Shown piece by piece: positions 10,988 through 43,875 of a stretch of 64,000 bases of DNA (within the stretch, counting starts at the first letter, position 1; each line of letters starts with the position of its first letter). Below the pieces are notes generated by a model. It searched no databases. It saw only the letters and a program-made list of their open reading frames with translations, and was not told where the DNA came from. The stretch lies in NCBI RefSeq assembly GCF_030013205.1, contig NZ_CP122648.1; one strand, given 5' to 3'. A program made the translations under genes and the position numbers. The DNA is from Escherichia coli (lineage in GTDB: Bacteria > Pseudomonadota > Gammaproteobacteria > Enterobacterales > Enterobacteriaceae).

Positions 10988-11491
10988 TTACTGATAGTGT
11001 TTTATGTTCAGATAATGCCCGATGACCTTGTCATGCAGCTCCACCGATTTTGAGAACGACAGTGACTTCCGTCCCAGCCTTGCCAGATGTTGTCTCAGAT
11101 TCAGGTTATGCCGCTCAATGCGCTGAGTATAACGCTTGCTGATAACGTGCAGCTTTCCCTTCAGGCGTGATTCATACAGCGGCCAGCCATCCGTCATCCA
11201 TACCACGACCTCAAAGGCCGACAGCAGGCTCAGAAGACGCTCCAGTGTGGCCAGAGTGCGTTCACCGAAGACGTGCGCCACAACCGTCCTCCGCATCCTG
11301 TCATACGCGTAAAACAGCCAGCGCTGACGTGATTTAGCACCGACGTAGCCCCACTGTTCGTCCATTTCAGCGCAGACAATCACATCACTGCCCGGTTGTA
11401 TGCGCGAGGTTACCGACTGCGGCCTGAGTTTTTTAAGTGGCGGAAAATCGTGTTGAGGCCAACGCCAATAATGCGTGCACTGGCGCGACAT
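10988..11491 (-). CDS. insB: IS1 InsB
   Basis: 167-aa ORF inside IS1, overlapping insA in the -1 frame. Confidence 0.9.
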
Positions 11492-11685
11492 CCGACGCCA
11501 TTCATGGCCATATCAATGATTTTCTGGTGCGTACCGGGCTGAGAGGCGGCGTAAGTGAACTGTAGTTGCCATGTTTTACGGCAGTGAGAGCAGAGATAGC
11601 GCTGATGTCCGGCGGTGCTTTTGCCGTTACGCACCACCCCGTCAGTAGCTGAACAGGAGGGACAGCTGATAGAAACAGAAGCCAC
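11410..11685 (-). CDS. insA: IS1 InsA
   Basis: 91-aa ORF inside IS1. Confidence 0.9.
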
Positions 11686-11833
11686 TGGAGCACCTCAAAA
11701 ACACCATCATACACTAAATCAGTAAGTTGGCAGCATCACCTACATTCCTGCATTGTTCTGTGAACACTGACTGCAATATCAACTGACTCTCCGGAAACAA
11801 GAAAAACCGTCAGAATAAGTGCAAATACTGGAT

Positions 11834-12127
11834 TCATTGTGCACATCCTTTTGGCATCAGACGTAAACGGGCCAGCATTGAAACAATGCATACTTTATTT
11901 AATAACTCCCGTTCGTGTTTTCTTTTGTTAATGGCCTCTTCAGTGAATACAGGATTACTGATAGTGACACCAATTTCAAAACAACCTTCAGACGTATTAA
12001 CGTTTGGTAATAACGTTTTCATTATCGCGCCCTCAACAATGAGTTTTGTGATGCGGTGCCTGGTGCCTCCAGGTGACGTTAACCAGTTAACAATTAACGC
12101 CGGATACAGAGAATCCACCCATAACAC
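11834..12127 (-). CDS. hypothetical early-left protein (start uncertain; an alternative ATG at 12022 gives 62 aa)
   Basis: ORF track; stop overlaps the start of the IS1-disrupted ORF; a GAGGG SD precedes the 12022 start. Confidence 0.35.
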   Translation of the reverse strand: MLWVDSLYPALIVNWLTSPGGTRHRITKLIVEGAIMKTLLPNVNTSEGCFEIGVTISNPVFTEEAINKRKHERELLNKVCIVSMLARLRLMPKGCAQ

Positions 12128-12582
12128 TGTTTTGGGTTTTAACTGTTCCGCGTGCGCTTAGCCGCATTCACCGCATCACAAAATTCACTTTAAAAATGGC
12201 GGCAGAGCAGTCACGGAGTAAAACTGATACCGCCAAACGTCACCAGAAAATTGATAACAGAGGGCGTTGCAGCGGGGTTGTCACTTAAGCGTATGGTCAA
12301 CCTGACAACCCGGTGTCCTCAACGGGGAAGGAATAACCTCGCCATACTTACCGCCGCGCCATTTCGCGGAGTGCCACAACCGGAAGCGCACGGTCGACGA
12401 AAATTTAACGACAGGCTATCTATGAACCAGCTACCTCGCCGTGCGCTTTCGCGTTATGGTCTGACTTTTCAGGGAAATATCCTTTCAGTAAACTGTCAGT
12501 GCCGGATGTTCACCCGTGTCCGGCGCACGCACTCCACCTCACCCGTGGAGAACTCCTTAATTACCAACCCTCAGGAGGGTGA

Positions 12583-12816
12583 ATGTTAAAATCAACTCTT
12601 ATTGCTAAATGCCTTTATCAAAATCGCATGGTAAGCAGCATTTCAATAGGCGAGTCTGCAGTTAAAAGTATTTTCGAAGAGTACTTCCCCGGGCATGATT
12701 TTAATAAATGGAATACCAAATTACCGCCAGCAGTTTCAACGCGTATTCTGAAATCAACTGAAAGAGCAAGTACAATTCGCGTTAACTATTTCATTAAAGA
12801 TTTGTGGGATCTTTGA
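12583..12816 (+). CDS. hypothetical 77-aa protein on the strand opposite to the early-left operon
   Basis: AGGAGG SD 4 nt before the ATG at 12583; AT-rich coding sequence in a GC-rich context. Confidence 0.4.
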   Translation: MLKSTLIAKCLYQNRMVSSISIGESAVKSIFEEYFPGHDFNKWNTKLPPAVSTRILKSTERASTIRVNYFIKDLWDL

Positions 12817-13201
12817 TATCCACAGAGCCTAAAGTATGTGCATATGGATGTGCTATTGTGCGCCCTCGCAGATTTGCATCATTTTCTAAATTCACTGAAC
12901 GAAACAGGGCATCAACAAGGCTCTGTACAATGCAAAGGCAATCGAAGACTGTCGCTGTTTCTGTTTTGATTGATGAAAGAACATGGCCATTCACGCAAAC
13001 AGAAATTACCCGTTCATTAACATCGCTTTCCTGCTTTTGATTATCAGAACCATATAGCCCAGAAAAAGCATTGCGCACATTACGAACCATATTATCGATG
13101 GTTTCTTTTTTGGTGTATGCCGGGTCAATTTTCACCAGACTATCACCGAGAGTCGTTGCAGCAATTGTCTGGATTTCTTTTGGTAAATCTTTAAATTCCA
13201 T
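12794..13201 (-). CDS. hypothetical early-left protein (135 aa)
   Basis: ORF track; lies in the leftward operon between repressor and exonuclease. Confidence 0.5.
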   Translation of the reverse strand: MEFKDLPKEIQTIAATTLGDSLVKIDPAYTKKETIDNMVRNVRNAFSGLYGSDNQKQESDVNERVISVCVNGHVLSSIKTETATVFDCLCIVQSLVDALFRSVNLENDANLRGRTIAHPYAHTLGSVDIKDPTNL

Positions 13202-13223
13202 TATTAGCCTCGTTGGTTAGCTA

Positions 13224-13442
13224 TTAACGTGGGTATGTAATCATTCTGGCAATGCTTAATGCCGCTGCTTTTTCCAGATTGGTGATATCCTGCTCCAGAG
13301 CGGACAGATTTTCAGCCTGCTTAGCCCTGGCTTCATTGGCCCATTTCAGATCCTGCACTGCATTAATTTTCTGGCGCATCCACTTATAAAGTTCATCATC
13401 GGTATAGTCTGGCGCGATGATGACGGGTTCTCGTTTCTGCAT
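13224..13442 (-). CDS. hypothetical early-left protein (72 aa)
   Basis: ORF track; same operon context. Confidence 0.45.
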   Translation of the reverse strand: MQKREPVIIAPDYTDDELYKWMRQKINAVQDLKWANEARAKQAENLSALEQDITNLEKAAALSIARMITYPR

Positions 13443-13471
13443 ACTGATTCCTCGCGGTGCTGTTTCGCTTA

Positions 13472-13600
13472 TCAGCCGTTAGATTTTGCCGAACTGGAAA
13501 GCGCCTGTTTAAACTCACTGAAGCTGAGAGCTTCTTCGCCTTCGGCAAGTCCTTCGAAGTATTCTTCGTAAGCCTTTTCCATGATTGTGTCGAAATCCAT
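13472..13600 (-). CDS. hypothetical small protein (42 aa, MDFDTIMEKAYEEYFEGLAEGEEALSFSEFKQALSSSAKSNG)
   Basis: Found by manual translation; AGGTGAG SD upstream of the ATG at 13600; fills the gap between neighbouring ORFs. Confidence 0.3.
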   Translation of the reverse strand: MDFDTIMEKAYEEYFEGLAEGEEALSFSEFKQALSSSAKSNG

Positions 13601-13601
13601 A

Positions 13602-13838
13602 TTACTCACCTGAGTTTCTTTCCAGCCAGCGACGCGCGCCAGATTCGGTTTTAAACGTTTTGCTTTTGGTATACGTCATCGCGGTGAACGTGCCGTCCTG
13701 GTTGGGAAACACGCCGTATACCAGAGATTCGTTGTTGCCAAGATCGATAGTATCCATGCTGACCTCATTTCCCCTTAACGCCGGGGTAGCGGAACAAAAA
13801 CCTGCTGCATAGTTATTAAAGTTGAACCCTGCCGTCAT
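13602..13838 (-). CDS. hypothetical early-left protein (78 aa), first gene after the left operator
   Basis: ORF track; GAGG SD upstream of the ATG at 13838. Confidence 0.4.
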   Translation of the reverse strand: MTAGFNFNNYAAGFCSATPALRGNEVSMDTIDLGNNESLVYGVFPNQDGTFTAMTYTKSKTFKTESGARRWLERNSGE

Positions 13839-13939
13839 GTTCTTACGCCTCGGGCTGGCTACTTAACCCCTGACCACTGCCTGGTAACTCGAAGTATTGC
13901 CCTGCATTCTGTGGGGCGGGGTGGGTTGGTATGAAAAGA

Positions 13940-13982
13940 AGGATACCCATAGGTATTTAAAAGTAAATACCCATGGGTAACT
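13940..13982 (-). promoter_or_regulatory. left operator/promoter region (two palindromic 14-mers)
   Basis: atacccataggtat (13943-13956) and the perfect palindrome tacccatgggta (13968-13979), downstream of the repressor gene and upstream of the leftward operon. Confidence 0.5.
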
Positions 13983-14021
13983 TTTTGCGGTGTCTTAACT
14001 GGTGACTAGTTGTTTGGTGAG

Positions 14022-14441
14022 CTATGATGCGTTTTGTGCTTTCTTTTTACGGATTTCTTCGTAGATCATATTGTAATACTGTTTTTTCTCTTCAAGAGTT
14101 TTTAATAAGTTATCCGCTTCACTTTCTGGCAGTTCGTCTAAGAGATCTAAAAAAATACGTTGTCGTGGCGTTAGAACCCTTGTTTCATAACTGGAGGCTG
14201 TGTTCGTTGATGATGAAACGATACCATCCATCCATCCCCGGGGTAACCCAAAGGACTCTTCGATAATCTCCACCATATCATCAGCGATCCGTTTTTTTCC
14301 CTTTTTCCCCTCTGGGTACAACATTCTTGATACATAAGAAGGCTCGCGCCCGATCTTTCTGGCCACGTTAACCGCTTTACCATCGCATTTCTCATCACGA
14401 ATTTTGATGAGTTGCTGTCGTCTAAATTCATATTTGTCCAT
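14022..14441 (-). CDS. prophage repressor (HTH, CI/RacR-like)
   Basis: 139-aa ORF with an N-terminal helix-turn-helix (KAVNVARKIGREPSYVSRML); flanked by operator palindromes and divergent from a cro-like gene. Confidence 0.6.
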   Translation of the reverse strand: MDKYEFRRQQLIKIRDEKCDGKAVNVARKIGREPSYVSRMLYPEGKKGKKRIADDMVEIIEESFGLPRGWMDGIVSSSTNTASSYETRVLTPRQRIFLDLLDELPESEADNLLKTLEEKKQYYNMIYEEIRKKKAQNAS

Positions 14442-14475
14442 AGGTAAATAATAGATGCGATTACCGCAAGGTAAA

Positions 14476-14516
14476 CAACCTGTGGGTATTGACTTTTGTT
14501 TACCTGTGGGTATTCT
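14476..14516 (+). promoter_or_regulatory. right operator/promoter region
   Basis: Two copies of acctgtgggtat (14478-14489, 14502-14513), the reverse complement of the left-operator half-site family; a TTGACT -35-like hexamer lies between them. Confidence 0.5.
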
Positions 14517-14541
14517 TTACTGTGTTTACTAAGGAGTAGCT

Positions 14542-14823
14542 ATGGAAGAATTAAGAATATTTCTCAATTCTCTTTCGTCAGATGAACAGCGTATGTTTGC
14601 ATGCGAGTGTGGTACCAGCATCGGTTATCTAAGAAAGGCATTGAGTAAAGGTCAAGTGTTAGGGGCATCGTTATGCGTCCTTATTGAGCGAGCCAGTAAT
14701 GGTGAAGTTACACGTCAGCAACTAAGGCCTTTTGATTGGATGAATATTTGGCCCGAGCTGGAAGATACCAAAACGTTAACACAACCACTTTCTAGGAGCT
14801 TGATTCATGAAAATCAAGCATGA
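14542..14823 (+). CDS. Cro/YdaS-family HTH protein
   Basis: 93-aa ORF divergent from the repressor; segment GTSIGYLRKALSKGQV...QQLRPFDW resembles YdaS/Cro-type regulators. Confidence 0.55.
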   Translation: MEELRIFLNSLSSDEQRMFACECGTSIGYLRKALSKGQVLGASLCVLIERASNGEVTRQQLRPFDWMNIWPELEDTKTLTQPLSRSLIHENQA

Positions 14824-15232
14824 ACACATCCGCATGGCGATGAATGCCTGGGCGCATCCGGACGGTGAAAAAGTTCCGGCAGCTGAAATAACCAGGGCTT
14901 ATTTTGAACTGGGTATGACGTTCCCAGAACTGTATGACGACAGCCATCCGGAAGCCCTGGCTCGCAATACCCAGAAAATTTTCCGCTGGGTAGAGAAAGA
15001 CACCCCTGATGCAGTTGAAAAAATTCAGGCGTTGTTACCAGCGATCGAAAAGGCAATGCCACCTTTGCTGGTGGCCAGAATGCGCAGCCACAGTTCAGCT
15101 TATTTTCGGGAGCTGGTGGAGACGCGGGAGCGACTGGTGAGAGACGCTGATGATTTTGTCGCAGTGGCAATCGCCGGTTTCAATCAGATGAACCGTGGTG
15201 GCCCGGCAGGAAATGCTGTGGCAGTACATTGA
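14807..15232 (+). CDS. YdaT-like protein
   Basis: 141-aa ORF overlapping the cro-like gene by 17 nt; position equivalent to ydaT/cII in Rac-type prophages. Confidence 0.45.
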   Translation: MKIKHEHIRMAMNAWAHPDGEKVPAAEITRAYFELGMTFPELYDDSHPEALARNTQKIFRWVEKDTPDAVEKIQALLPAIEKAMPPLLVARMRSHSSAYFRELVETRERLVRDADDFVAVAIAGFNQMNRGGPAGNAVAVH

Positions 15233-15297
15233 CTGACAATAGCCATATCGAATCGCTTCCGGCAACTCGTGAGTAAAAAGATTCGGTATCAGAAGAG

Positions 15298-16374
15298 GTG
15301 AGTATGGCTAACGCCTGGCTCAGATTATGGCATGACATGCCAAATGACCCTAAGTGGCGAACAATTGCCAGGGTGTCAGGGCAGCCAATTGCAACAGTGA
15401 TGGCAGTGTATATCCACCTCCTGGTGAGCGCGTCACGAAATGTCACGCGAGGTCACATTGATGTCACGACAGAAGATTTGGCAAGTGCGCTCGACGTGAC
15501 AGAAGAGGTAATTGATTCAATTTTGCAGACGATGCAGGGGCGGGTACTTGATGGTGATTTAATCACTGGATGGGAAAAACGCCAGGTGCTTAAAGAGGAC
15601 AACGGCAATATTTCGCAAACCGCAAAATCTCCTGCAGAGCGCAAGAGGGCGCAGCGAGAGAGGGAAAGAAAGCGGGAACAAAATGGCGATTGTCACGGCG
15701 CGTCACGAAATGTCACGCACATGTCACGACGAGTCACGACAGATAAAGATACAGATAAAGATACAGATCAAGAAGATCAAAACACTATGGTCCATGGCGT
15801 AAAAAACGCCACGAACCGGGCAGGGGATGTTCAGACCGTCAATCTTGGTCAGCCAGCAGGCACGACACCGGAAGCCGATTCAGCGTATGCGCTGAAAGCC
15901 GATTCGGGCGCTGTGCAGCAGGTGATGACCGCAAGGCTGGAGCAATCACACCAACTGCAGCAGCCCGAAGCCGATTCCGCCATTCAGCGGGAAGCCGATC
16001 GGGTAGTCCCGGAAAACACCGGGCAGTCTGTGGGACGAGTGGATTATCCGGATGTGTTCGAACAGGTCTGGCGGGAGTACCCGTTGCGTGCCGGAGCAAA
16101 CCCGAAGAAATCCGCTTTCAGTGCCTGGAAGGCCAGATTACGCGAGGGGGTGCCACCAGAGGCCATGCTGGATGGCGTGAGGCGTTACGCAAGATACTTG
16201 GCGGCTACCGGGAAAACGGGAACGGAATTTGTTCAGCGAGCGACGACGTTTTTTGGACCGGACCGGAATTTTGAGAACCCCTGGTTGCTCCCGGTAAGCG
16301 GCACGAACAACCAGCGTTGTGTGAATCATATTTCTGAACCGGATAACGAAATTCCGCCGGGCTTCAGGGGGTAA
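15298..16374 (+). CDS. phage replication initiation protein (O-like), origin embedded in the gene
   Basis: 358-aa ORF in the replication position; two clusters of 10-bp-phased GTCACG iterons lie inside the coding sequence. Confidence 0.5.
   Translation: MSMANAWLRLWHDMPNDPKWRTIARVSGQPIATVMAVYIHLLVSASRNVTRGHIDVTTEDLASALDVTEEVIDSILQTMQGRVLDGDLITGWEKRQVLKEDNGNISQTAKSPAERKRAQRERERKREQNGDCHGASRNVTHMSRRVTTDKDTDKDTDQEDQNTMVHGVKNATNRAGDVQTVNLGQPAGTTPEADSAYALKADSGAVQQVMTARLEQSHQLQQPEADSAIQREADRVVPENTGQSVGRVDYPDVFEQVWREYPLRAGANPKKSAFSAWKARLREGVPPEAMLDGVRRYARYLAATGKTGTEFVQRATTFFGPDRNFENPWLLPVSGTNNQRCVNHISEPDNEIPPGFRG
15431..15780 (+). repeat. iteron-like origin repeats followed by an A/T-rich repeat tract
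   Basis: GTCACG at 15432, 15442, 15463 (variant gtcaca at 15452) and at 15692, 15702, 15712, 15723, 15733; followed by agataaagatacagataaagatacagat. Confidence 0.5.
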
Positions 16375-16414
16375 GTGTTAATTTCTGGTCATGAGGTAAT
16401 TTTCAGGAGGGCTT

Positions 16415-16837
16415 GTGGCAAAAGTTTTTACACAAGAAGAGCGGGAAAAAATTAAAGGACAGGTTGTTGAACTCGTACGCCAGAGTGGGCGTGAGACGTT
16501 ACGGCAACTGGAAGTCAAGACAGGTGCGACAAGATATCTGATGAGCGTTCTCGCAAGAGAGCTGGTTGCCAGCGGCGATGTATACAACTCTGGTTACGGG
16601 TTATTCCCGTCTGAACAGGCGCGTAAGGACTGGCAAAATGCCCGTAAAAAGCTCTCAAGGGCAAAGCTGAAGAAACCATCTGCGGTTGATCCGGACCTTA
16701 TCTGGTCATTACCTGACGGAGAAATACGTCGCTACGACAGGCGTCAGAACATAATCTGTCGCGAGTGCCGGAAGAGTGAAGTTATGCAGCGCATATTGTC
16801 GTTTTATCAGGGTGATGTTCGGTATTTATTGAAGTGA
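16415..16837 (+). CDS. hypothetical protein (140 aa) in the replication module
   Basis: ORF track; follows the replication gene; possible HTH segment. Confidence 0.4.
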   Translation: MAKVFTQEEREKIKGQVVELVRQSGRETLRQLEVKTGATRYLMSVLARELVASGDVYNSGYGLFPSEQARKDWQNARKKLSRAKLKKPSAVDPDLIWSLPDGEIRRYDRRQNIICRECRKSEVMQRILSFYQGDVRYLLK

Positions 16838-16983
16838 CGAGATTAAAGTGCATTAGTTCAGATGCAAATTGACATTTTGTGGCACAGGGTAGAGCTAGCG
16901 TGGTTGTCCGCTTTGTGCCAACAGCGGACATTATAGATGGTATATGTAGAAAGTGAACATGCGTAGATTGTATGATTTAGCCG

Positions 16984-17793
16984 TCACTTAATTATTGGAT
17001 AACTCACACAAGTATGACCGTTGCTTATCGCATACATTTGGTTTCCCTTAAGATTTACAAATGGAAATGTCGTATACTCATAATTTATAGAGGTCATATT
17101 AAATGTAAGGAATTTATCTTCAAGTTCTAATTTTGTAGAGTGGGCAGGGTATGTTCCTTCATTTTTCATTGTGATAATAAAACCGATAGGAAAAAAATGT
17201 AAAGCACAAATAAATGCCACATGTCCTTCGTTCATAAATGCTACACTTTGAGCGGATATGTGCATTCTGTGTGGGTAAAACCAGTAGTAAATATCATGAG
17301 TTTCCTCAAAACTTGAATTTTTACCCAAAACATAATCCTTTAAAGGTGTATAGAAGGGGCTATCTACGGGTTCTTTTTTACAATCTTCAACTGAAGTTGC
17401 TGATAGCACGTGCCCAATCATAGCCTTAGTGAAAGATATGCTATCAAAAGGTATTCTAATGAATGGATATACATTCATACCATTCATATATCGACTTAAC
17501 TGTTCTTTAAAGGACTTTGTTACATTTTCAATTGCAACATCGAGCCCACCTAATACCTTATTGTTACAGTGGCTGCAAATGGTTCTGAAATAAGAGCCAT
17601 TTTTAGCATTTAATGGTTTAACTGGTTCCTGAATACCAAAAAATTCGCTAACTGTTTTCTGCAAAACAGGGCCTAAGGTTATGGCGCACTTTGGAGGAAC
17701 ATGATCTTTTGTGAGCAAGCCATATTTCCCACAAATATTGCAATAACCTTCAGTAATGCCATTGTGCTTCCATCGTTCACTAATTTTCGTCAT
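16984..17793 (-). CDS. HNH (His-Me finger) nuclease-domain protein with an uncharacterised C-terminal domain
   Basis: 269-aa ORF; CxxC (18/21), DH-x-P (30-33), CxxC-N (73-77); GAGGG SD; AT-rich and antisense to the flanking rightward genes. Confidence 0.6.
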   Translation of the reverse strand: MTKISERWKHNGITEGYCNICGKYGLLTKDHVPPKCAITLGPVLQKTVSEFFGIQEPVKPLNAKNGSYFRTICSHCNNKVLGGLDVAIENVTKSFKEQLSRYMNGMNVYPFIRIPFDSISFTKAMIGHVLSATSVEDCKKEPVDSPFYTPLKDYVLGKNSSFEETHDIYYWFYPHRMHISAQSVAFMNEGHVAFICALHFFPIGFIITMKNEGTYPAHSTKLELEDKFLTFNMTSINYEYTTFPFVNLKGNQMYAISNGHTCVSYPIIK

Positions 17794-18116
17794 TTTTATT
17801 CCCTCAGTAGCATAAGCTATCTATACGTTTTTTAATCCTATCAAAGATACAACTTAACGTCAGGAAAATGATAGTGTTTATCTAAGTAATACAATTAACT
17901 TCAACGCGTGACAGTCTGCTTTTCGCTAAAAGCGGACTAGAAGGTTAGCTTGCGTCGGACTTGGCGTATTTAAAGAAGTGCTGGTGGTGACTGGTTGTTG
18001 TGTTCCATTTCTACAGAACAAAATCACAGAAACTATACCCAATAGTTGTATTGAATCACTGACGAGACAGCCTCATATTTATCAGGACTGGTGTACGTCC
18101 AATACAGGAGGTTGTG

Positions 18117-18206
18117 GTGCTGGTTCTCAAATGTGCGCTGGCTATTGCTGCTGTAATGGCAATTTATTGCCTTGCTGTTGTTCTTATGGATCGCCTTTCT
18201 GATTGA
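18117..18206 (+). CDS. putative small hydrophobic peptide (29 aa, MLVLKCALAIAAVMAIYCLAVVLMDRLSD; GTG start)
   Basis: Perfect AGGAGG SD at 18106-18111, 5 nt before the GTG at 18117; single predicted transmembrane helix; followed by a long hairpin and an intrinsic terminator. Confidence 0.3.
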   Translation: MLVLKCALAIAAVMAIYCLAVVLMDRLSD

Positions 18207-18245
18207 TTTTATATTGGCGAGGTGACGTGAGTTAAGTAGAATTGC

Positions 18246-18332
18246 TGCGGGTGCTTGAGGCTATCTTCCTCTGATGTGTCAGGCATCCTCAACGCACCCG
18301 CACTTAACCCGCTTCGGCGGGTTTTGTTTTTT
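18246..18332 (+). terminator. long imperfect hairpin followed by an intrinsic terminator
   Basis: tgcgggtgcttgagg...cctcaacgcacccgca (18246-18302), then cccgcttcggcggg plus a T-run (18306-18332). Confidence 0.5.
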
Positions 18333-18404
18333 CCTGGCATTCTGGTTTACAATTCGCACGCCAGCCTGAACAACTGGCACCTGCTGCGCCAGCAGAGACA
18401 ACCG

Positions 18405-32521: not shown

Positions 32522-33373
32522 TTAACTCGAGTAAGCGGCCAGCATTTCCTGCGCCGCCAGTTTACCCAACGCATTCGCTGCGAAAGGACTGTCGCCGGTG
32601 AGAACTTTACGGTCCTTATGTACTCGCCCGGTGATGTCGTCATTAATAATGTTCATGCCCATTTTCTTCAGCTCTTCGCCGAAGTACCAGGTGAGATGAC
32701 CCGGCATATAGCCTATCTCTGGCGTTTGTTTGTCTGCGGCGTCTGGGAATGCGCAAATGGAATAACCATTCAGTGGGTTATCGCCGTGGCGAAGTGCCAG
32801 AAAAGCCGCCGGACCGTGGCAAAGGGATATAACAAAACGGTCATTTTTGATTGCCCACTGTAAAGCGGCAGCCACGTCCTGGCTTTCTGGTAAACCAATA
32901 AGTGCGCCATGACCACCAGGAACAAAGATTGCTGCATATTCGCTGTCAGCGTTGAGGCTGGCGACAACATCCGCGAGTTTATTAGGATTGCGGAACAACG
33001 ATTTATGCTGCTCAAAGAATGGCATTACTTTTTCATCTTTGTGTGGCATAGCCCAGTATTCAAACTTGGTCATCAGACCGGAAATGGTCGCCACTTCGAA
33101 TTCGAAACCTGCAGCATGGAGATGATACAACGGCAGCAACGTTTCAATCGGATGGTTACCGGTCGAAAACAGTTTGCCGTTATCGGTCGGCAAATAACGT
33201 TCGTCCGCGGCGATCACCAGAATTTTATGTTTACCACGATAAGGTTTTGGGTAGTCCACGCCATCAAGATCAGAGACAGGACTAGTATATTGGCTAAGCG
33301 AATATTCTGAAGGGAAGAATGCATTATCTTCAGCAATATCGACCTGCGGATTTTTACTTGTTTGAACAGTCAT
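32522..33373 (-). CDS. hchA: HchA (Hsp31), glyoxalase III / protein deglycase
   Basis: 283-aa ORF matching Hsp31 as I recall it. Confidence 0.9.
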   Translation of the reverse strand: MTVQTSKNPQVDIAEDNAFFPSEYSLSQYTSPVSDLDGVDYPKPYRGKHKILVIAADERYLPTDNGKLFSTGNHPIETLLPLYHLHAAGFEFEVATISGLMTKFEYWAMPHKDEKVMPFFEQHKSLFRNPNKLADVVASLNADSEYAAIFVPGGHGALIGLPESQDVAAALQWAIKNDRFVISLCHGPAAFLALRHGDNPLNGYSICAFPDAADKQTPEIGYMPGHLTWYFGEELKKMGMNIINDDITGRVHKDRKVLTGDSPFAANALGKLAAQEMLAAYSS

Positions 33374-33964
33374 AGTGTATTCCTTATTGTTGCTTAGTTA
33401 GGGTAGTCACTATATTTGCGACTGAGCTGGTCGCTATTTTTAACCAGGCTGGAAAATTGAGTCAATATATCGAAAGCGGTAGTCGGCGGGTGTAAGTATG
33501 TAATGATGATGCTGCACTGGTGTTGAATATTATTCACGCCAAATTTTCCTTATTGAGCAACGTCGTCGCAAGTGGCCTCAATGATTTTAGACCATTATCA
33601 GAGGTCCGGGGCGGCAGGGAGAGATTTAGTGCTGTGGAATATTGTGGTGCTGATGAATATTTATATCCCGGATTGGTAGAGAAAAAGCTTTTTCCATGCA
33701 CTTTTTTTGCAAATATTTCTGTATGGGAGGCGGTTTTGTTGCAGATTAATTCATAAAGAAATGCATTTGGGTGTTGGCTGGAAGAGTCGCGGGTAGATGT
33801 TATTGTGCCAGCAGGGGCAGGGTAAGGTACTGTATCGATATGCTTTGGCAATTGCATGTGCCGCAGAGGGAGATGAAATGCCAATAAAAAAGCCTGAGTT
33901 CGATGAGGGACGAACTCAGGCTAGTGTTAACTTTTACAGTAACACGCCGCGGCGCGTTGGCTGA

Positions 33965-35158
33965 TTAGAACTGGTAGACTAAGCCCACAGCAACGATATC
34001 ATCGGTAGCGATGCCGTTTGCTTTGTAGAAGTCGTCGTCGTTGTCCAGCAGGTTGATTTTGTAATCAACGTAGGTGGACATGTTTTTGTTGAAGTAGTAA
34101 GTCGCACCAATATCAACGTATTTAACCAGATCTTTATTGGTGTAACGTGGGTCGCCGTTGCCGTCATGAGCCCAACCACCTAAATCCTTACCTTTAGATT
34201 GCAGGTAAGCGATGGACGGGCGCAGGCCGAAGTCGAACTGATACTGAGCAACAACTTCAAAGTTTTGGGTTTTGTTCGCAATACCACCTCTGTCAATGTC
34301 GTTATTGTCTTTTCCGCTGCCATATGCAGTCATATTACGTGTTTCTGCATACATTGCCGCTAAATAGACATTATTCGCATCATATTTAGCACCGACTGTC
34401 CATGCTTCAGCTGTTTCACCACCAGCATATTTATTCGAGCGTTGCTCACCTAAACCAGTAGCACGTTGGTTATCAGTACGGTCAGAGTTTGAATATGCAG
34501 CCCCGAGGCTTAACCCGAAGTCAAAGTCATAGGAAGTGGACATACCGAAACCGTCACCATTTTCTTTAGACAGTTTACGATTATTACCATTACCAGAACC
34601 TTCTTGATCCCAAAGCCCACCCGATCCTTCATTATTACCCTGATATTGCAGAGCAAAGTTCAGGCCATCGACCTGACCAAAGAAGCCATTGTTACGGTAG
34701 GTTGCAACACCATTAGCACGACCGTTCAGGAAGTTGTCGGCACCAGCATAGGTATCGCCACCAAATTCTGGCAGCATATCGGTCCATGCTTCGATGTCAT
34801 ATACGACACCGTAGTTACGACCATAGTCGAAAGTACCATTCTGACCAAAGCCTAAACCTGCAAATGCCAGACGCGTTGCGGTATTACCTTTGTCGCTTTC
34901 AGGACCGTTTGCGCCAATGTTAAATTCCCACTGACCATAACCAGTGAATTGGTCAGCGATCTGAGTTTCACCTTTGAAACCGATACGGGCATATGACATG
35001 TCGCCATCGCTGCCAGCATCATCAGAGAAGTAGTGCAGGCCCGCTACTTTTCCGTACAAATCCAGTTTATTACCATCTTTATTATAGACTTCAGCCGCAT
35101 TTGCTGCGCCAGCAACTAATAACGCCGGGACCAGCATTGCCAGAACTTTTCTTTTCAT
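33965..35158 (-). CDS. yedS: OmpC-family porin YedS, apparently intact
   Basis: ORF 33965-35188; start at [38 protein letters not shown] (OmpC-like signal peptide and mature N-terminus), C-terminal ...VALGLVYQF. Confidence 0.8.
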
Positions 35159-35842
35159 TATGTATTCCCTTGTGATTATAATCTTCATGAATATATCAAT
35201 AAGTGCCGTTATCCAAAAAAAAGCACATTTGGATACTATTCTATGAAGTTCATTTTATTTTAAAGATTACATGCAACAAATATATTTAAAAGATTTCAAA
35301 ATGTTTCTAATCTATTTAATATAATTCGGAATTATGAATTCTAAATATAAATATTCATGAAAATTATAAATGTATATCAATATGTTATGAGTTGAGCGGA
35401 AACATAGGGGGTATCAATGATTGTTGCGCCAAACGGCTGGTGTGATCACGCGCACATTAATGAAGGCATAAAAAAAGCCGGCATCATGCCGGCCCAAAAA
35501 AATAAACAAGACGATAAAAGGCTAATAACGGAAGCATCATGACACAGAATAATAAAAAGGTATAATTGTAATCAGTGCTAATATATTGATTGAATGAATT
35601 AATAAAGCCGATATCAAAGATAAATAAAATCGCTCAAAACGATTTTTCCTGTATTCACTGCCGTTGCGCAAAAATTATCTATTTGTTCAAAAAATGATTG
35701 AGTCTTGACTGGCTCATCCAATGTGGAAAAATGTGACTTTTATCACATAATAGTACTAAGTCTGAATTTTCCGGGTTATCTCAAAATGGAATACGGTTCG
35801 ACAAAGATGGAAGAGAGACTCTCTCGCAGCCCTGGCGGCTAA

Positions 35843-36088
35843 TTGGCTTTGTGGGCTTTCTATACATGGTGTGGCTATTTCGTCTGGGCAATGGCGCGTT
35901 ACATCTGGGTGATGAGCCGGATCCCTGATGCCCCGGTGTCGGGATTTGAAAGCGATTTAGGCTCTACCGCGGGAAAGTGGTTAGGGGCACTGGTCGGATT
36001 TTTATTTATGGCTCTGGTCGGGGCATTGTTAGGCAGCATTGCCTGGTACACCCGACCTCGTCCCGCACGTAGCAGACGCTATGAATAA
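35843..36088 (+). CDS. yedR: small inner-membrane protein (YedR-like)
   Basis: 81-aa ORF with two hydrophobic segments, in the K-12 yedR position. Confidence 0.5.
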   Translation: MALWAFYTWCGYFVWAMARYIWVMSRIPDAPVSGFESDLGSTAGKWLGALVGFLFMALVGALLGSIAWYTRPRPARSRRYE

Positions 36089-36100
36089 AAACTGCTAAGG

Positions 36101-36715
36101 TTGCGACTCTTTGGCAACGGAGCGCGTATGGACTTACAACACTGGCAGGCACAGTTCGAAAACTGGTTGAAAAACCATCATCAGCACCAGGACGCGGCCC
36201 ATGACGTGTGTCATTTTCGCCGCGTCTGGGCTACGGCACAGAAGCTGGCGGCAGAAGAGACGCGTCGCCTGCTGCGTGAAGAATTCGTGCAATTTCCGGC
36301 GGAGAAAATCGAGGCCGTTTGTCATGCCATTGCCGCTCACAGTTTCAGCGCGCAAATCGCCCCCTTAACAACGGAAGCTAAAATCGTCCAGGATGCGGAT
36401 CGGCTGGAAGCCCTGGGGGCGATTGGCCTGGCGCGCGTGTTTGCTGTTTCAGGGGCATTGGGCGTGGCGCTGTTTGATGGTGAAGATCCGTTCGCACAGC
36501 ATCGCCCGCTGGATGATAAACGCTACGCGCTGGATCATTTCCAGACTAAGTTGCTGAAGCTACCGCAAACCATGCAAACCGCAAGAGGCAAGCAGCTGGC
36601 GCAGCACAACGCGCAATTTTTAGTCGAGTTTATGGCGAAGCTCAGTGCCGAACTGGCGGGGGAGAATGAAGGTGTCGATCACAAGGTGATAGATGCGTTT
36701 TCACCCGCGGGCTGA
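36101..36715 (+). CDS. yedJ: YedJ, HD-domain phosphohydrolase
   Basis: 204-aa ORF; position and sequence consistent with yedJ upstream of dcm. Confidence 0.7.
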
Positions 36716-43606: not shown

Positions 43607-43787
43607 TTACCAGGATGATTCTCAAAACAGCACAAATTATCAAAGATGATTTTTTCGGGAGCGATCCCGTTGACGCCAGAGCCACCAAGGGGTGACGCGC
43701 GTCACATTTCTATTCATAAGTAGCGTTAATCATTCATATCACGAATATTTTCTTGTCAGCGAAAAAAATTGCGGATAAGGTGATGAG

Positions 43788-43875
43788 CACATCAGATTTC
43801 CTGGTGTAACGAATTTTTTAAGTGCTTCTTGCTTAAGCAAGTTTCATCCCGACCCCCTCAGAGTCGGGATTTTTT
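43788..43875 (+). ncRNA. dsrA: DsrA small regulatory RNA
   Basis: ...acatcagatttcctggtgtaacgaattttttaagtgcttcttgcttaagcaagtttcatcccgaccccctcagagtcgggattttttt, matching DsrA including its terminator. Confidence 0.85.

Follow-up and report, generated by a model that had tools for sequence, protein, structure and literature searches.

An intact allele of the accessory porin gene yedS in an Escherichia coli genome

The porin gene at positions 33965..35158 of the stretch of Escherichia coli DNA analysed here (64,000 nucleotides, called the window throughout; NCBI RefSeq assembly GCF_030013205.1, contig NZ_CP122648.1) is the gene of the yedS locus. The gene is known, and the state in which it is found here is ordinary and already catalogued. 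As a rule E. coli has yedS intact, and K-12, where the gene is broken, is the exception. We consider it highly probable that the window carries an intact allele of an accessory general-diffusion porin gene, whose product would serve as a minor back-up porin, made at a low, conditional level.

The gene and its start codon

The open reading frame on the minus strand runs from 35188 to 33965, giving 407 codons from its first ATG, with zero internal stops. The first and the second ATG of this frame compete as starts, and the features that bear on the choice are the following.

33965..35158, minus strand: yedS coding sequence, 397 codons plus a stop at 33965-33967, encoding an OmpC-subfamily general porin precursor
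35166..35171, minus strand: Shine-Dalgarno sequence AAGGGA at a spacing of 7 nt from the ATG at 35158, read from the sequence and invariant in 7 strains
35159..35188, minus strand: in-frame upstream extension of 10 codons, which gives the 407-aa longest ORF; no Shine-Dalgarno sequence, and RefSeq starts at the second ATG

No Shine-Dalgarno sequence can be read before the ATG at 35188. In strain K_EC180 (NZ_CP062203.1), which has a 100% identical gene, the RefSeq start is the second ATG, giving a gene of 1194 bp (WP_000824405.1). Given the Shine-Dalgarno sequence at 7 nt and the RefSeq usage, and its lack before ATG 35188, the start is assigned to ATG 35158; the real gene most likely occupies 33965..35158 on the minus strand and encodes 397 aa, and the 10-codon extension is probably not translated. 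The 407-aa form is nevertheless used in some GenBank records, where a very similar protein, a member of the same 90% cluster, goes by the name 'putative outer membrane protein YedS'.

An assembly artefact as the source of the intact frame was rejected: several complete swine E. coli genomes, independent of one another, have the identical sequence, and the exact 397-aa protein is found on at least 1000 public contigs under the name 'porin OmpC' or 'Porin'.

Protein family and predicted structure

Profile searches place the protein firmly among the porins. The Pfam family Porin_1 (PF00267) matches residues 27-397 with E=5.5e-143 and 476.9 bits against a cut-off of 23.7, and covers profile positions 1-337 of 337. 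The NCBIfam OmpC model, which is of the 'subfamily' and not the 'equivalog' type, scores 546.8 bits against a cut-off of 484, while the OmpF and PhoE equivalog models stay under their cut-offs (466.7 vs 583 and 447.9 vs 599, respectively). A porin match by chance is excluded by the Porin_1 E-value and the OmpC subfamily score together, and on these scores the window protein is an OmpC-subfamily general porin. The description in an earlier note on this DNA, that of a complete OmpC-family porin reading frame with a signal peptide and no internal stops, is thus upheld.

The protein has a Sec signal peptide followed by a mature N-terminus of the AE(V/I)YNKDGNK type. The segment that encodes the signal peptide is:

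35096..35158, minus strand: signal-peptide coding segment, amino acids 1-21, with cleavage predicted before A22 (AEVYNK...)

The mature chains of solved porins (OmpK36, 5nup_A, and OmpC, 2j1n_A) have their residue 1 aligned with residue 22 of the query and span residues 22-397, and the mature chain of YedS comprises 376 residues. At the other end the protein closes with ...VGLVYQF, in which Y395, Q396 and F397 are invariant in 17 sequences; a C-terminal phenylalanine is the β-barrel assembly signal in general porins. Both the mature N-terminus and the C-terminal YQF given in the earlier note are found in the translation.

Features of the pore are also present. The constriction-loop (L3) motif PEFGGD occurs in the window protein and in the other close alleles of the long class described below. 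Among 17 sequences, and in precursor numbering, K37, D127 and R147 are invariant and R58, R96 and E131 are at least 90% conserved; we take these six to be the counterparts of the charged eyelet residues of OmpF and OmpC. AlphaFold2, run on the 17-sequence alignment, gave a model with a mean pLDDT of only 55.6, whose all-β strand pattern is compatible with a 16-strand barrel. The only use made of this low-confidence model was a rough assignment of strands and loops, and we infer the 16-stranded barrel fold from E-values of about 1e-147 to solved 16-strand porins.

The closest solved relative is OmpK37 of Klebsiella pneumoniae (PDB 6v78; E=6.8e-147, 493 bits, residues 21-397), with which YedS has in common the PEFGGD constriction loop and long L4-L6 loops. 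The two differ in that the L5, L6 and L7 loops of YedS are longer, appearing as gaps in OmpK37, and in that OmpK37 comes from a different genus. OmpK37 is presumably a quiescent, narrow-pore porin. The next solved relatives are OmpK36 and OmpC entries at about 1e-123 to 1e-134, followed by OmpK35, PhoE and OmpF. E. coli OmpC, OmpF and PhoE belong to the same Pfam family as YedS and have the same cleavage context and C-terminal YQF, with E-values to the solved structures of 1e-123, 1e-114 and 1e-116, respectively; their mature chains have 330-346 residues, compared with the 376 of YedS. A connection to Salmonella OmpS1 is by name alone, an E. coli homologue 87% identical to the window protein being called 'outer membrane protein S1' in its source record. 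The K-12 gene has likewise been labelled 'yedS (ompS1)' (PMC2731931).

The locus and its regulatory region

The gene order, obtained from the ORFs of the window and the annotation of an identical region, is hchA - yedS - rseX - drpB(yedR) - yedJ - dcm - vsr. yedS is transcribed away from drpB, and its position between rseX/drpB and hchA matches the K-12 layout. It is because of this synteny with hchA, rseX and drpB that the gene is identified as yedS, and the name proposed in the earlier note is confirmed by the run hchA - yedS - rseX - drpB - yedJ - dcm. The elements that flank the coding sequence are:

32522..33373, minus strand: hchA, neighbour of yedS
33891..33922, minus strand: yedS intrinsic terminator from a terminator scan, a 12-bp stem (7 G-C pairs) followed by TTTTTATT
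35189..35469, minus strand: AT-rich upstream regulatory region, with 22% GC at 35200-35399 in the composition profile
35439..35459, no strand: CRP-like palindrome ggTGTGAtcacgcGCACAtta, located after the rseX terminator and ahead of the yedS promoter region, conserved in 7 strains
35470..35558, minus strand: rseX, gene of an Hfq-binding small RNA, matching Rfam RF01401 over its full length with 93.4 bits (gathering score 50)

For a 108-bp deletion in yedJ, a 45-nt junction query does not separate deleted from undeleted genes, since through an 11-bp direct repeat the undeleted ones match 31-40 nt of it.

rseX has the same orientation as yedS, with about 310 nt between its terminator hairpin (35495..35475) and the yedS start. 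Downstream, the yedS terminator begins 43 nt past the stop codon. Taken together, the upstream region, the Shine-Dalgarno sequence and the signal peptide have a mean column identity of 96% across allele classes. A promoter-like site, TTTAGA-16-TATATT, can be read at 35345..35318 on the minus strand as a consensus match only (9/12), and promoter-scan matches in the upstream region occur at chance frequency (9 found vs 7.2 expected).

From its composition, the region 35189..35469 is a likely candidate for an H-NS target. The quiescent porin gene ompS1 of Salmonella is regulated by H-NS silencing of an AT-rich upstream region. In K-12, loss of H-NS raises expression around rseX, a region that is silent in the wild type (PMC8313858). 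The K-12 yedS transcript goes down 2.5-fold upon sigma-E induction, alongside those of ompC, ompF, ompN and phoE (PMC2731931). The palindrome at 35439..35459 is a putative CRP site, by its resemblance to the consensus TGTGA-N6-TCACA; its K-12 counterpart, ggTGTGAtcaggcGCACAtta, is tabulated beside yedS in a Footprint-seq preprint (PMC12871828).

Base-pairing with small RNAs was also computed. MicF was located in one K-12 genome, and its duplexes with the translation-initiation region of yedS were calculated; the abstract of Warner et al. reportedly names MicF and MarA as controlling YedS. The unrestricted MicF duplex with this region is no better than those with shuffled targets. With the 5' 33 nt of MicF, the yedS start region gives -7.7 kcal/mol. 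This is weaker than the value for ompC (-14.1), and about 81% of 1000 shuffles, like about 84% of the 212 other start regions in the window, pair more strongly. Direct control of yedS by MicF therefore has no computational support from base-pairing. Pairing of RseX with yedS is indistinguishable from that with shuffles.

Comparison with K-12 and distribution in the species

In K-12, yedS (b1964-b1966) is annotated as a pseudogene, at the same locus and in the same orientation as the window gene. That the K-12 copy is interrupted, as the earlier note stated, is borne out both by annotation and by alignment. The gene that occupies the yedS position in NZ_CP152466.1, a K-12-derived genome, is flagged 'frameshifted; internal stop'. 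Alignment identifies its lesions as CAG>TAG at nt 484, which turns codon 162 into an amber, and, near nt 666, a deletion of 1 bp. In the window gene codon 162 reads CAG and no base is missing near nt 666; it is free of both K-12 lesions. The earlier note had named an internal frameshift as the result that would count against it, and alignment with the K-12 gene found none in the window gene.

The window gene is not simply the K-12 gene without its lesions. Over 1401 nt the two are 91.3% identical in nucleotide sequence, and this identity is very unevenly spread. Upstream of the gene it is about 98%. Within the gene, 60-nt bins give 93-100% over the first ~480 nt and over the last ~300 nt, but only 61-86% over nt ~480-900, which encode surface loops L4-L6. 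Because of this low central identity, the sequence of the window yedS is that of a distinct allele, and not of a reverted or repaired K-12 gene.

The frequency of the K-12 amber lesion was determined with a 45-nt query centred on the amber base, with which megablast seeds only when that base matches. The lesion is found in 358 of 5426 complete genomes, and among the 12 matches listed all those that could be identified are K-12 laboratory derivatives (e.g. BW25113 and MG1655 constructs). For the rest of the species, annotation was inspected in 22 other (non-K-12) genomes, taken at evenly spaced positions in two rankings. All 22 have a porin gene between drpB and hchA, and it is intact in 21. 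The sole exception is O157:H7, whose lesion is not that of K-12 but the loss of 1 bp at nt 608. The losses in K-12 (amber plus frameshift) and in O157:H7 (a separate 1-bp deletion) are independent. The gene itself, at a threshold of at least 99% identity, is present in 60 complete-genome records. What the earlier note implied, that an intact copy is unusual, finds no support in these counts, with the K-12 lesion confined to 358/5426 genomes and 21/22 of the non-K-12 genomes intact.

Intact yedS genes have been met before. A functional YedS in a carbapenem-resistant clinical E. coli was published in 2013 (Warner et al., Antimicrob Agents Chemother 57:1935, PMID 23318808), and a later paper gives the combination of an active yedS porin gene and an inactivated marR as a mode of carbapenem resistance (PMC4048246, citing Warner 2013). 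As citing papers describe it, the yedS of the clinical isolate and that of the window are alike in being intact in non-K-12 strains. In a STEC strain, a porin described as '50% homologous to K-12 YedS' was detected as protein (PMC9731836).

Polymorphism of the locus

Comparison of the window with nine other strains gives a pattern with sharp edges. Identity to the window in the upstream region is 93-100% in most of the nine strains (76-100% in LH50c), and the first 60 nt of yedS, which make up almost the whole signal-peptide coding part, are 100% identical in all nine. In divergent alleles it then falls: from about nt 60 onwards identity is 23-88%, with most values at 50-80%, until the stop codon is reached, and right after it returns to 93-100%. 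Among 10 alleles compared, the 63 nt that encode the signal peptide show zero differences, synonymous ones included. rseX and the Shine-Dalgarno sequence likewise hardly vary in the genomes examined, and the part exchanged between alleles coincides almost exactly with the stretch from the signal-peptide cleavage site to the stop codon.

Two classes of allele can be distinguished. One, the long class, to which the window and K-12 alleles belong, is OmpC/OmpK37-like and has proteins of 387-404 aa. Proteins of the short class have 352-371 aa, find their best family and structure matches in OmpF, PhoE and OmpK35, and have VEWGGD in place of PEFGGD; carriers include Nissle, W and O103:H2 12009. Between the classes, protein identity is about 51% and synonymous sites are saturated. 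The conserved regulatory segment is present in 4879 of 5426 genomes, and 30 genomes taken at even spacing divide into 14 with a long and 16 with a short allele.

Judged from these alignments, the yedS locus behaves as a cassette polymorphism, in which a fixed promoter and signal peptide appear to be joined to either OmpC-like or OmpF-like mature porins. As to its origin, we offer only tentatively, and as something we doubt more than we believe, that the classes are a balanced polymorphism kept up over a long time, or that DNA from other species has replaced the segment in frame more than once. The exchange of classes could plausibly be driven by phages, by colicins or by host immunity, with a minor porin as their target. 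A description of the cassette polymorphism of the yedS locus was not found in the searchable literature, coverage of which is incomplete, and the chance that it is undescribed is rated as modest.

Sequence variation and selection

Within the long class, variation is concentrated in the loops. Among close alleles, 78 of the 158 positions in predicted loops are variable, against 18 of 218 elsewhere (odds ratio 10.8, p=1e-19); the loops counted were L2 and L4-L8, on a strand/loop map that is approximate (AlphaFold2 pLDDT 55.6). The constriction loop L3 varies at only 4 of its 39 positions among the same alleles. For the barrel core, the window allele was compared with four other long alleles, giving dN/dS of 0.009-0.04 at dS of 0.19-0.43. 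The barrel core is under strong purifying selection.

These dN/dS values, together with the concentration of variation in the loops, suggest that the YedS protein is probably made and used in nature; purifying selection of this kind argues for use. Its expression is likely to be conditional. The AT-rich promoter is of a silenced type, and YedS protein may be absent in ordinary culture.

Proposed role and alternatives

The role that we favour is that of a minor porin of the general-diffusion type, and by homology its life history would be as follows. The YedS precursor would be exported by Sec and cleaved after ANA (Ala21), inserted by the BAM machinery as a 16-stranded β-barrel, and then assembled into trimers. 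The trimer would let small hydrophilic solutes, including β-lactams, diffuse passively across the outer membrane. yedS would probably be held at a low, conditional level by its H-NS-type silenced promoter and by porin-targeting small RNAs, and the CRP-like site and the lowering of the K-12 transcript by sigma-E and small RNA would form part of the same regulation. The contribution of YedS would be visible mainly when OmpF and OmpC are lost.

The chief rival to this proposal is that the gene is intact yet cryptic, that is, permanently silenced (e.g. by H-NS) and without any contribution, disabling mutations being merely still to come. Much of what has been described for the locus can be read in this way: the upstream region has 22% GC, K-12 keeps the rseX region silent in the wild type and de-represses it when H-NS is lost, and the independent losses in K-12 and O157:H7, with the absence of the regulatory region from about 10% of genomes, mark the gene as dispensable. 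A permanently silent gene would not, however, be expected to have a core dN/dS of 0.009-0.04 at dS of 0.19-0.43, which speaks for long-term selection on the protein, nor replacement changes concentrated in surface loops, a distribution that one would expect of a protein displayed on the outside of the cell. The promoter, the Shine-Dalgarno sequence and the signal peptide are conserved as well, and papers citing the clinical work report a functional YedS that affects carbapenem susceptibility. The cryptic reading is hard to reconcile with the strength of the purifying selection, and we regard it as unlikely.

The other two alternatives concern what kind of porin this is. It might be held that the window gene is the canonical osmoporin OmpC, so that there is no separate extra porin at all; PGAP does name the identical gene 'ompC: porin OmpC', and the protein passes the NCBIfam OmpC cut-off. 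That model, however, defines a subfamily and not an equivalog, and the best solved match is OmpK37, not OmpC. The chromosomal locus differs too: the window gene lies between drpB/rseX and hchA, K-12 ompC adjoins micF and rcsD some 280 kb away, and a typical genome has 3 separate places that match the window query. The window gene does not have the adjacency to micF and rcsD, and on this synteny the identity with canonical ompC was rejected; we give it hardly any credence. It could also be that YedS serves mainly as a variable antigen or receptor at the surface, recognised by phages, colicins, contact-dependent toxins or host antibodies, and not as a solute channel, in which case the allele carried would matter more than whether the gene is intact. 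The hypervariable loops and the range of protein lengths, from 352 to 404 aa, would fit such a role, as would the sharply bounded cassette, whose OmpC-like and OmpF-like classes each occur in about half of those sampled genomes that have the region, and a synonymous divergence that far exceeds the levels typical of E. coli core genes. Against it, the eyelet and L3 are conserved, so that a channel function is compatible with the sequence, and a receptor function was not found documented in the accessible literature. Loop variability of a similar kind is general among enterobacterial porins that act as channels. A main role as antigen or receptor seems to us very improbable, and we retain the proposal of a minor general-diffusion porin.

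Significance

For the strain from which the window comes, the finding has little consequence; the interest is in the locus across the species. To call yedS a pseudogene of E. coli is to take K-12 as the measure of the species. Automatic annotation of the gene as ompC is uninformative and can mislead screens for porin loss. The cassette polymorphism, if it has not already been described, is a natural example of the exchange of a whole mature porin behind a fixed regulation and export signal. In natural isolates that are without OmpF and OmpC, YedS is to be counted as a possible remaining entry route in studies of permeability and carbapenem resistance.

Prophage-like segment and DsrA

A prophage-like segment occupies positions 5600-24000 of the window, adjoining tRNA-Asn and tRNA-Ser genes, and it contains a DicF small-RNA gene and a cluster of further tRNA genes.

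5842-5917, tRNA-Asn, beside the segment
6909-6998, tRNA-Ser, beside the segment
12197-12248, minus strand, DicF small-RNA gene, within the segment
22037-22346, tRNA-Met/Thr/Gly cluster, within the segment
43786-43872, plus strand, DsrA small-RNA gene (Rfam, 96.3 bits)

The segment is 100% identical to sequence in swine ETEC genomes, where the 18.4 kb of query is spread over 24.4 kb, and therefore about 6 kb present in those genomes is absent from the window. The DsrA gene at 43786-43872 is present, as it should be in this part of the chromosome.

Genes neighboring the porin locus

The following features lie around yedS.

33534-33884, minus strand, 116-aa "hypothetical protein" ORF (WP_072264948.1) in the RefSeq annotation, between the yedS terminator and hchA
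35470-35558, minus strand, rseX small-RNA gene, directly upstream of yedS and in the same orientation
35807-36088, plus strand, drpB (yedR, cell-division protein), with a premature stop at 35840-35842
36128-36715, plus strand, yedJ (HD-domain phosphohydrolase), with a deletion junction near 36245

The 116-aa ORF is annotated in the strain with an identical region and in some other strains, and is absent from the K-12 annotation; it is probably spurious. Compared with K-12, rseX lacks one A ahead of the internal T-run, and its terminator T-run is shorter by one T.

In drpB, codons 12-13 are changed from AAA CTG to TAA TTG. The TTG immediately after the premature stop is a possible restart codon, and the RefSeq product, of 81 aa, is begun there. 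The stop variant was found in just 17 of 5426 complete genomes, the source being swine for every such genome among the matches listed.

The window yedJ is 108 bp shorter than that of K-12 through an in-frame deletion between a pair of 11-bp direct repeats, CTGGCGGCAGA. Because the 36 amino acids removed include the ...YFHD... motif, the encoded enzyme is probably inactive. In a later sample, yedJ was full length (696 bp) in all 12 genomes.

Porin locus flanked by drpB and hchA

The window gene (33965-35158) was compared with the porin loci of other E. coli genomes (L003-L012 and L014-L025). One of these, L025 from strain 2015C-3121, carries an IS1A element at 1748-2445 of the locus, approximately 195 nt upstream of the porin start codon. 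The porin gene is intact there, and the insertion lies inside its AT-rich regulatory region, where it could either activate the promoter or disconnect it.

Across the compared loci the signal peptide and promoter region are nearly invariant, and it is the mature part of the porin that is swapped, between an OmpC/OmpK37-like class (387-404 aa) and an OmpF/OmpK35-like class (352-371 aa), which share about 51% protein identity. The swapped part has sharp boundaries, at the end of the signal peptide and at the stop codon. The drpB-hchA porin gene in E. coli is a cassette polymorphism.
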